The notes beneath the pieces were generated by a model, which was not told the DNA's origin, searched no databases, and worked only from the letters and a program-made list of their open reading frames with translations. DNA of 4,438 nt from a virus (lineage: Duplodnaviria; Heunggongvirae; Uroviricota; Caudoviricetes): IMG/VR virus record IMGVR_UViG_2695420589_000004; one strand, 5' to 3'. Below, in pieces: positions 2,998 to 4,438 of this stretch; position 1 is the first letter of the stretch; every line of letters starts with the position of its first letter. The position numbers and the translations under genes are program-made.

Positions 2998-3198
2998 ATG
3001 ATCATGCTGATTCTCGCGCCTCTGGTGGGCGTGCTGGGTGCGCTTTTGCTGGCGTATGGTGCCTGGCTGATTTATNNNNNNNNNNNNNNNNNNNNNNNNN
3101 NNNNNNNNNNNNNNNNNNNNNNNNNNNNNNNNNNNNNNNNNNNNNNNNNNNNNNNNNNNNNNNNNNNNNNNNNNNNNNNAGTCTGTCGGCGGAGGTAA
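2998..3198 (+). CDS. Small hypothetical membrane protein (single predicted TM helix), partly masked
   Basis: ATG at 2998 with GAGGT at 2989-2993. The visible N-terminus [26 protein letters not shown] is a hydrophobic, helix-like segment. After the N-run the same frame reads ...VCRRR and stops at TAA 3196-3198, if the N-run preserves length. It lies 11 nt after the terL stop and ends inside the portal RBS. The 3' boundary is uncertain because of N-run 3076-3179. Confidence 0.4.
3076..3179. other. N-run (104 nt)
   Basis: Contiguous n characters. Confidence 1.
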
Positions 3199-3201
3199 AT
3201 A

Positions 3202-4427
3202 GTGTTCTTTTCGGGATTATTTCAACGAAAAAGCGATGTGCCGGTGACCACGCCAGCAGAACNNNNNNNNNNNNNNNNNNNNNNNNNNNNNNNNNNNNNN
3301 NNNNNNNNNNNNNNNNNNNNNNNNNNNNNNNNNNNNNNNNNNNNNNNNNNNNNNNNNNNNNNNNNNNNNNNNNNNNNNNNNNNNNNNNNNNNNNNNNNNN
3401 NNNNNNNNNNNNNNNNNNNNNNNNNNNNNNNNNNNNNNNNNNNNNNNNNNNNNNNNNNNNNNNNNNNNNNNNNNNNNNNNNNNNNNNNNNNNNNNNNNNN
3501 NNNNNNNNNNNNNNNNNNNNNNNNNNNNNNNNNNNNNNNNNNNNNNNNNNNNNNNNNNNNNNNNNNNNNNNNNNNNNNNNNNNNNNNNNNNNNNNNNNNN
3601 NNNNNNNNNNNNNNNNNNNNNNNNNNNNNNNNNNNNNNNNNNNNNNNNNNNNNNNNNNNNNNNNNNNNNNNNNNNNNNNNNNNNNNNNNNNNNNNNNNNN
3701 NNNNNNNNNTCAGGTGACGTTTCCGGATGGTTCCGTGGATGTGTTGACCCAGAATGAAATCTGGCATGTGCGCACCCTGACGCTGGATGGACTTGTCGGG
3801 CTGAATCCCATTGCGTATGCGCGTGAGGCCATTTCACTGGCAGCGGCAACCGAGGAGCACGGTGCCAGGTTGTTTAGTAATGGTGCGGTGACATCCGGTG
3901 TGTTGCGTACGGAACAAAAGCTCACGCCGGATGCTTACGAGCGTCTGAAGAAAGATTTTGAGGAGTGTCACACGGGGCTTGGCAATGCTCACCGCCCGAT
4001 GATTCTGGAAATGGGGCTGGACTGGAAGTCGATGGCGCTGAACGCCGAGGACAGTCAGTTCCTGGAAACCCGCAAGTTTCAGCTGGAAGAAATCTGTCGT
4101 CTGTTCCGGGTGCCGTTGCACATGGTGCAGAACACCGATCGCGCCACCTTCAACAATATCGAAGAGCTGGGGCTGGGATTTATCAACTATTCACTGGTGC
4201 CGTATCTGACCCGCATCGAACAGCGGATCAACACCGGACTGGTACGAAAAAGTAAGCAGGGCGTTTATTACGCCAAATTTAACGCCGGGGCGTTACTGCG
4301 CGGGGATATGAAGTCCCGTTTTGAAGCCTACGCCACCGGGATCAACTGGGGAATTTACTCTTCCAATGACTGCCGCGACCTGGAAGATATGAATCCGCGT
4401 CCCGGTGGTGTAATGCCGATCAGTTAA
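3202..4427 (+). CDS. Phage portal protein, HK97 family, with a 447-nt N-run inside (3263-3709)
   Basis: GTG at 3202 with a strong GGAGGT at 3191-3196 (5-nt spacer) and an in-frame TAA immediately upstream at 3196-3198. The visible N-terminus is MFFSGLFQRKSDVPVTTPAE. The unmasked C-terminal part (3710-4427) reads ...NPIAYAREAISLAAATEEHGARLFSNG...EDSQFLETRKFQLEEICRLFRVPLHMVQN...YLTRIEQRIN..., which is typical of HK97-family portals. The total span of about 408 codons is the expected portal size. The N-terminal and C-terminal parts are in different frames across the N-run, so the join is inferred. AAGGA at 4426-4430 suggests the next gene, expected to be the head protease, starts just past the window. 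Confidence 0.78.
3263..3709. other. N-run (447 nt) inside the portal gene
   Basis: Contiguous n characters. Confidence 1.
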
Positions 4428-4438
4428 GGATCAGTTGA

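Follow-up and report, generated by a model that had tools for sequence, protein, structure and literature searches.

The small gene preceding the portal gene of a P27/SfII-type prophage corresponds to ymfR, a conserved portal-coupled gene predicted to encode a membrane hairpin

The small open reading frame (ORF) found between the large terminase gene (terL) and the portal gene of a stretch of prophage DNA of 4438 nt (referred to here as the window) is, on the evidence of its sequence, ymfR (PHROG 502 / IPR020297), an already known and annotated prophage gene without a characterised function. The gene belongs to the late operon, is conserved and under selection, is coupled to the portal gene and encodes a small hydrophobic hairpin. 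Taken jointly, its identity, the architecture of its product and the conclusion that it is not a moron are held with very high confidence. As an observation on a single gene this was an ordinary rediscovery, ymfR being present in over a fifth of the complete Escherichia coli genomes. Its value lies in the context, namely that hairpins of 45-70 residues precede HK97-type portals, with which they are coupled and co-inherited, from Enterobacterales to Alphaproteobacteria and Bacillota. The conservation of this coupling across phyla is a neat lead that can be tested, and is not a surprise.

An earlier note on the same DNA had likened the ORF to a moron-type insertion or a small membrane effector, encoding a protein of a single helix with, if the mask preserved length, a basic tail. 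The real ORF and the small membrane protein that it described were both retained in the present analysis, and the moron, the basic tail, the length and the single helix were not.

Content of the window and reading frame of the small ORF

The late structural region of an enterobacterial prophage of the P27/SfII/ST64B/e14 type begins in the window, which was 97% identical over 2.3 kb to the chromosome of E. coli MB06101 (L001). The following features were located in it:

146-496: HNH endonuclease gene
Between the HNH gene and terL: small terminase gene (terS), P27 family
1240-2986, + strand: large terminase gene terL, containing the N-run 1937-1951; stop TAA at 2984-2986
2989-2993, + strand: Shine-Dalgarno GAGGT of the small ORF, 4 nt before its ATG, read directly from the sequence
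2998-3202, + strand: ymfR-family gene, placed by alignment to L001, SfII and phiP27, by the PHROG 502 match and by dN/dS
2998-3075, + strand: codons 1-26, visible; they cover the first predicted transmembrane helix (AF2 helix 2-25) and end with the invariant Tyr26
3076-3179, no strand: N-run, 104 nt in place of 82 nt; relatives encode here the turn, the second predicted transmembrane helix and the first part of the cytoplasmic tail
3180-3202, + strand: visible last codons (c)AG TCT GTC GGC GGA GGT AAA TAG, giving ..QSVGGGK and the stop, in the frame set through unmasked relatives
3191-3195, + strand: Shine-Dalgarno GGAGG of the portal gene, within the last codons of the small ORF, read from the sequence
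3202-4426, + strand: HK97-type portal gene with a GTG start, interrupted by the N-run 3263-3709; in-frame TAA at 4424-4426

The terL gene shared 97% identity with its annotated counterpart in E. coli MB06101 ('terminase large subunit', L001 1654-3387). Comparison with an unmasked relative revealed that none of the four N-runs of the window preserved length; inside terL, for instance, the 15 N at 1937-1951 stood for 2 nt, and the 447 N at 3263-3709 stood for about 381 nt of the portal gene. Since the runs do not have their true length, reading frames carried across any mask of the window are unreliable.

The small ORF began at ATG 2998, 11 nt past the terL stop, and was preceded by the GAGGT at 2989-2993, so that the start and ribosome-binding site given in the earlier note were borne out by the sequence. 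GAGG was also present at the matching place in enterobacterial relatives (tgaggtaatt, tgaggcattt, cgaggcgttt). The 26 visible N-terminal codons were identical to those of the unmasked relatives, and the hydrophobic character ascribed to this part of the protein was likewise upheld. Nevertheless, the reading beyond codon 26 had to be revised. The N-run at 3076-3179 measures 104 nt, and the same interval measured 82 nt in all three of the unmasked relatives compared (E. coli MB06101, SfII and phiP27). The mask is hence 22 nt too long and the frame after it is shifted, so that reading across it produced, as artefacts, a length of about 66 residues, a tail of 'VCRRR' and a stop at TAA 3196-3198.

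The true gene has a length of 183 nt (60 codons and the stop) and spans 205 nt in the window owing to the excess of 22 nt in the mask. Its product has 60 residues and ends in the window in ..QSVGGGK instead of the basic RRR tail, which came from the wrong frame. The stop is the TAG at 3200-3202, not the TAA, which lies in another frame; the correct span is therefore 2998-3202. The last base of this TAG is also the first base of the portal GTG at 3202 (TAGTG), an overlap of 1 nt. The earlier description of a single helix had to be abandoned as well, since under the mask the gene codes for a Y-P-P-A-G turn and another hydrophobic helix. Of the small ORF, the window shows only residues 1-26 and the final 7 residues, and we infer an intact middle of this gene copy from the relatives, to which the flanks are 97-98% identical. 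The earlier note had itself cautioned against relying on the masked content.

Identification of the small ORF as ymfR

The unmasked sequence of 60 residues was identical to YmfR of E. coli K-12 (b1150, NP_415668.1, 'IPR020297 domain-containing protein YmfR'). Of 5426 complete E. coli genomes, at least 1135 carried a ymfR annotation at the matching region, with an identity of 97-98%, and the same identity range held for the genes of SfI, SfII, ST64B and phiP27 and for b1150. The unmasked relative matched PHROG 502 'membrane protein' with an E value of 2.5e-28 over profile positions 3-57 of 58, and the names 'membrane protein' or 'putative integral membrane protein' were found in the records of SfI, SfII, ST64B and phiP27.

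In K-12, ymfR belongs to prophage e14 and is placed as in the window, with a gap of 11 nt and an overlap of 1 nt, flanked by what is left of terL (aaaE) and of the portal gene (beeE). Whereas e14 is a decayed remnant, with ymfR among the few intact genes of its late region, the window holds an apparently complete packaging and head module of the P27/SfII type. The C-terminus in the window, ..QSVGGGK, is that of the phiP27-like variants, and K-12 YmfR differs from it in ending in ..SSVGGGK.

In the literature searched, ymfR appeared only in e14 gene lists and in one transcriptome table; a functional study or experiment on any member was not found, nor was any paper discussing a family of membrane hairpins that precede portals. 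Induction of K-12 ymfR alongside other e14 genes has been reported under SOS-inducing stress (PMC10012262).

Searches for relatives were carried out in several resources. Pfam and NCBIfam contained no family for the small ORF and gave only sub-threshold matches to hydrophobic segments. The profile search against the PDB returned nothing significant, the best match being the glycophorin A helix (E 0.7), and Foldseek against viral models returned nothing at E <= 0.001, with a best E value of 0.22 and generic hairpins only. Thus, Pfam, NCBIfam, the PDB profile search and the Foldseek viral models offered no relative, by sequence or by structure, whose function is known. PADLOC yielded no family at E <= 1, either for the YmfR-type ORF or for its SfV-type counterpart (see below).

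The family is filed under 'moron' in PHROGs, was missed in the SfV record U82619.2 and is mislabelled in three phage records (ON470584.1, ON470603.1 and PQ793804.1; H30-H32). In these three, the ymfR-type ORF is named 'head-tail joining protein W', a label that appears to have been transferred by position.

Conservation and predicted architecture of YmfR

An exhaustive profile search of 1.84 billion proteins at E <= 1e-3 gave 372 cluster representatives, nearly all of 45-70 residues. Pairwise dN/dS values were between 0.12 and 0.36 at a dS of about 1 (within Enterobacterales, Halomonadaceae and Alphaproteobacteria), and by this measure the small ORF is a real coding gene under purifying selection. 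The core motif (Y/F)GAW(L/M)IYPPAGF(I/V) was kept in Reyranella, Shinella, Rhodoferax and Ruminococcaceae MAGs.

All unmasked relatives had the same layout of two helices, about 60 residues and the motif (Y/F)GAWxIYPPAG; in the window copy, the mask hides the second helix and the turn that follows Tyr26. An AF2 model built from an alignment of 29 sequences placed helices at residues 2-25 and 27-52 with a pLDDT of 72. YmfR is accordingly modelled, and predicted, as a two-helix hydrophobic membrane hairpin, and this prediction, together with the PHROG 502 'membrane protein' match, agrees with the small membrane protein that had been proposed from the N-terminus.

The loop between the helices had no charged residue in any of 44 distinct members, every Lys and Arg being located in the N- or C-terminal tails, and Arg/Lys-rich N-terminal extensions were present in many homologues. 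By the positive-inside rule, this uncharged loop and these basic tails predict an N-in/C-in topology with the YPPAG turn at the periplasmic face. With this predicted topology, the small protein would have two helices and a charged cytoplasmic C-terminal tail, ARYLDRTQSSVGGGK, a feature that is not specific to holins.

Among 29 members of the enterobacterial type, the residues P8, G11, G14, L18, G21, W23, Y26, P27, G30, G35, C38, L39, W41 and S42 were invariant, and so were the C-terminal G58 and G59. The invariant Gly-Gly coincides with the codons that form the Shine-Dalgarno sequence of the portal gene, and therefore probably reflects a nucleotide rather than a protein constraint.

Natural tandem duplications of about 100-120 residues, with four helices and YGAW..PPAG occurring twice, were found in P0152, P0168, P0174, P0209 and L122 (84-401). 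These duplicates and the invariant glycines (G11, G14, G21, G30 and G35) suggest that the hairpins pack together. An AF2 model of one tandem member, used as a proxy for hairpin packing, gave four helices at a pLDDT of 64 and no trustworthy packing. The tandem form at L122 84-401 was located directly upstream of a portal gene, with an overlap of 4 nt.

Translational coupling to and co-inheritance with the portal gene

The earlier note had taken terL and the portal gene to be normally adjacent, which holds for HK97 itself, where the two overlap directly and the small ORF is absent; the extra ORF is a departure from HK97 proper. It had also proposed a search for homologues at the terL-portal junction of related prophages, and these were present, directly upstream of HK97-type portals across phyla. 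Relatives occupied this position in Enterobacterales, Halomonadaceae, Reyranella and Ruminococcaceae. In 50 genome loci, found by means of the small protein, the ORF was directly 5' of an HK97-type portal gene. The stop/start overlap was usually 1 nt, this value being observed in all of the close viral loci and in most of the approximately 50 genome loci. The adjacency of ORF and portal persisted when the identity of terL was as low as about 21%, or when terL was situated 0.6-2.2 kb further upstream. Furthermore, a GGAGG- or GAGG-like sequence preceded the portal start in most of the loci bearing the ORF. The shared stop/start base and the presence of the portal Shine-Dalgarno sequence within the last codons of the ORF indicated that the two genes are translationally coupled.

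An independent sample of 80 viral contigs, picked by the portal alone, was also analysed. In every complete locus of this sample with a portal at least 70% identical, the ORF was present with the 1-nt overlap, with terL either of the ~98% type or of an unrelated ~36% type (identity to the window terL). Divergence of the ORF across 69 distinct loci followed that of the portal (r = 0.82; partial correlation 0.69 when controlling for terL), and the partial correlation with terL was 0.27. For the 142 pairs of loci with different terL and similar portals, the mean ORF distance was 0.17. By these comparisons ymfR belongs to the head module as an accessory gene, and it is the portal gene with which it is co-inherited. 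This co-inheritance could be mere physical linkage, because an overlap of 1 nt leaves no room for a recombination junction.

One set of loci (L061, L064, L069, L072-L075, L082, L089, L098 and L100, compared with L057-L060) had portal and ymfR 83-100% identical to the reference type and carried two unrelated terL types (~98% and ~36% identical to that of the window). The association of one portal-ymfR type with two terL types places a mosaic junction in the short terL-ymfR spacer.

Phage SfV had the same terL as the window type, a portal only 28% identical and a small ORF of a sister family, PHROG 7105. Members of PHROG 7105, like those of PHROG 502, are hairpins of two helices and 50-70 residues encoded between terL and an HK97-type portal gene, and the families are linked by a cross-match to PHROG 502 of E 5.7e-6 and by 18 bits against the family profile. 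Unlike PHROG 502, PHROG 7105 has a turn without YPPAG and accompanies the other portal lineage (28% identical). The SfV member is an unannotated ORF of 53 residues with two helices, MKSLIADVIGLAGFGLLTCGVYLQFGMAPALILSGALLLVGALAMARRGTRAA, at 2289-2450 of U82619.2 (L055), which matched PHROG 7105 with an E value of 3e-22 and fills the annotated gap of 100 nt between terL and portal. It overlaps the terL stop (ATGA), and it shares 59 nt with the portal gene as annotated from GTG 2392; this annotated start is probably too far upstream.

Loci with and without the ORF were compared among related portals. When portals were about 60% or about 40% identical to the window type, some loci carried a diverged hairpin ORF and others carried none. 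At closer range, the portal of L097 was 82% identical to those of the ORF-bearing loci L092 and L105, and terL abutted the portal gene directly in L097. A relocated copy was looked for in the loci devoid of the ORF, including L097, and none was found; the N-termini of the portals showed no systematic difference between loci with and without it. Gain or loss among such close relatives implies that the ORF is not generally required for portal function, and by this pattern ymfR is an accessory gene, dispensable for this portal type.

Late-operon setting and a possible role at the membrane

Upstream of the ORF and on the same strand were found a Q-type antiterminator, a lambda-family holin, a GH24 endolysin, LysC, HNH, terS and terL. 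The complete lysis cassette (holin, endolysin and LysC) was situated about 2.3-3.6 kb upstream of the ORF. These late genes make the small ORF internal to the late operon, and a holin is not lacking.

The following role is put forward as the leading one for YmfR. The gene would be transcribed as part of the late operon, in which the antiterminator, the lysis cassette, HNH, terS and terL precede it, and would be translated just ahead of the portal gene, coupled to it through the shared stop/start base. The hairpin would be inserted in the inner membrane with both ends inside and the turn at the outer face, where hairpins may oligomerise through their glycine-rich helix faces. YmfR may then act with the portal made from the same mRNA, and the membrane might be where it holds or organises the initiation of the portal or procapsid, or the packaging of DNA. 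The mechanism itself, a predicted late-expressed partner of the portal in the inner membrane, is tentative and rather unlikely. The best explanation as a whole, with this mechanism included, is plausible at somewhat less than even chances.

To our knowledge, the assembly of HK97-type heads has no known membrane step, and if YmfR truly links the portal to the membrane, such a step would be added to an assembly pathway generally treated as cytoplasmic. In phage T4, the portal initiator gp20 is membrane-bound and dependent on the viral factor gp40 (PMC9958956). YmfR and gp40 could be functionally analogous, as phage factors that tie portal assembly to the inner membrane; no homology between them is claimed. 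The differences are that the T4 portal and head are of another lineage than the HK97 type, that gene 40 is neither adjacent to nor coupled with gene 20, and that gp40 is important for T4 head assembly whereas ymfR is dispensable in close portal relatives. A wider proposal can be made, distinctly unlikely as it stands, in which PHROG 502 and PHROG 7105 would form an unrecognised class of portal-coupled membrane hairpins, through which a large share of the HK97-type phages and prophages would initiate the portal or procapsid, or package DNA, in association with the membrane. Such hairpins would have a function like that of gp40, and would differ from it in that they are small, are coupled to the portal at the level of translation and have been gained and lost repeatedly.

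Alternative roles

It is possible, if unlikely, that YmfR is a late-expressed membrane protein unrelated to the portal, which would act on lysis timing or membrane potential in the manner of a holin, antiholin or pinholin, or would block superinfection, the adjacency to the portal gene being linkage only. S21-type pinholins and class II holins are small two-helix hairpins with short charged tails. YmfR resembles them as a small protein of the inner membrane with two glycine-rich helices, and its position in the late operon is compatible with such a function. The patchy presence of the ORF among related portals suggests an accessory function, and the natural tandem duplicates suggest oligomers, as channel-formers would make. 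Nevertheless, the prophage already has the complete lysis cassette described above, with its canonical holin. A position in the lysis cassette is a hallmark of holins, and the ORF was never found there but always directly 5' of the portal gene across phyla; moreover, the type of ORF switched when the type of portal switched. The charged dual-start motif was also absent, the N-terminus being MIM, MIL or MFL, and no PADLOC match was obtained. A dual start of the holin/antiholin kind at M-I-M was considered separately and rejected, since no charged residue lies between the two Met and most homologues begin with MIL or MFL.

A role mainly in cis is improbable. According to this explanation, the ORF would be a coupling leader that feeds ribosomes to the weak GTG of the portal gene and so sets the portal dose; its product might carry the mRNA to the membrane, and the peptide would have no function of its own. 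Several features of the nucleotide sequence are as such a leader would have them: the stop/start overlap of 1 nt is nearly universal, the portal Shine-Dalgarno sequence lies inside the ORF, the portal start is GTG in the E. coli type, and the invariant C-terminal Gly-Gly corresponds to the Shine-Dalgarno codons. However, the protein sequence is under purifying selection, and a motif of 15 residues is conserved between Proteobacteria and Bacillota although the codons vary. In addition, relatives without the ORF couple the portal straight to terL by a similar overlap, so that a leader is not needed.

A classical moron or lysogenic-conversion gene, independently transcribed and of benefit to the host, for example by superinfection exclusion like HK97 gp15, is very improbable. 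The family is placed by PHROGs in the category 'moron, auxiliary metabolic gene and host takeover', the product is a small membrane protein missing from HK97 proper, and ymfR is one of the few genes left intact in the decayed late region of e14. YmfR shares with morons of the gp15 type the nature of a small helical protein of the inner membrane encoded by a phage or prophage, and, as is typical of morons, the ORF was present or absent among similar phages (portals 82% identical with and without it). The hallmarks of a separate transcription unit were nevertheless missing. A consensus scan, the only method applied, found no sigma-70-like promoter in the window between 2700 and 3262 or on the + strand of L001 between 2900 and 4100. 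There was no conserved terminator either, and the ORF overlaps the portal start. Its base composition did not deviate from that of its neighbours, the GC/GC3 values being 0.60/0.69 for the small ORF, 0.56/0.68 for the portal gene and 0.54/0.63 for terL. The gaps to the neighbouring genes were tight (11 nt after terL and -1 nt to the portal gene), the position was kept over deep divergence across bacterial phyla and PADLOC gave no match. K-12 ymfR was induced with the rest of e14, and not apart from the other prophage genes. The moron-type insertion of the earlier note is therefore not supported.

A terminator-like hairpin inside the ORF is annotated in SfII, and the scan located one at L001 3417-3444. 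An internal rho-independent terminator was rejected, as K-12, phiP27 and the window all have a broken form of the stem of 12 bp, and Mangrovibacter, Erwinia, Halomonadaceae and others lack it; the hairpin is a by-product of Gly/Leu codons.

Finally, an equivalent of the lambda head-tail joining protein gpW, to which the slot between large terminase and portal, the small size of the gene and the label in the three phage records would correspond, is next to impossible and effectively refuted, because gpW scored -1.1 bits against the family profile and is a soluble protein, incompatible with the almost wholly hydrophobic YmfR and its two predicted membrane-spanning helices, so that the analogy is one of position only.

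Other observations on the window and its matches

An exact direct repeat of 42 nt, GAAATTTAACCAGGAGTGCCGCATATGGCTGGAACGGCGGGG, which includes the terS start, occurred at 594-635 and 725-766, flanking the N-run of 85 nt at 640-724. Both copies map to one place in the unmasked relative, which means that the true 'gap' is an overlap; the repeat looks like an artefact of scaffolding or masking, not biology.

At the 3' end of the window (4411-4438), the last ~28 nt diverged from L001, and the last ~17 nt had no match in any E. coli portal gene. The in-frame TAA at 4424-4426 falls about 28 codons short of the normal portal end. This divergence could mean that the portal is truncated, that a rearrangement junction lies here or that the end of the sequence is artefactual.

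Matches of 93-100% identity (DNA or encoded protein) to the terL-ymfR-portal region were also obtained under the names of Gram-positive or otherwise unexpected organisms. These were OR844959.1, 'Enterococcus phage Efm 3-10' (1764 bp; H35), 'MAG: Bacillota bacterium' JAEWTL010000102.1 (L006) and Edwardsiella hoshinae (L008). Contamination or mis-binning is likely in the case of OR844959.1 and L006.

In the Shigella flexneri sequence CP182557.1 (L015), a second copy of the locus was found at 4001-4182, with a match 1 nt shorter, leaving an ORF of 24 codons with a TTG start at L015 4108. This second ymfR copy appears to be frameshifted, and its terL and portal genes were still 98-99% matches.

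Additionally, at about 517-578 of the window, in the interval between HNH and terS, an inverted repeat rich in G+C was observed (GGGGCGGGGCA ... TGCCCGCCCC); its arms enclose about 28 nt, and seven T follow. A simple terminator scan left it uncalled because the loop is long. The repeat sits in the interval that contains the annotated cos site of phiP27 (L003 1072-1081).
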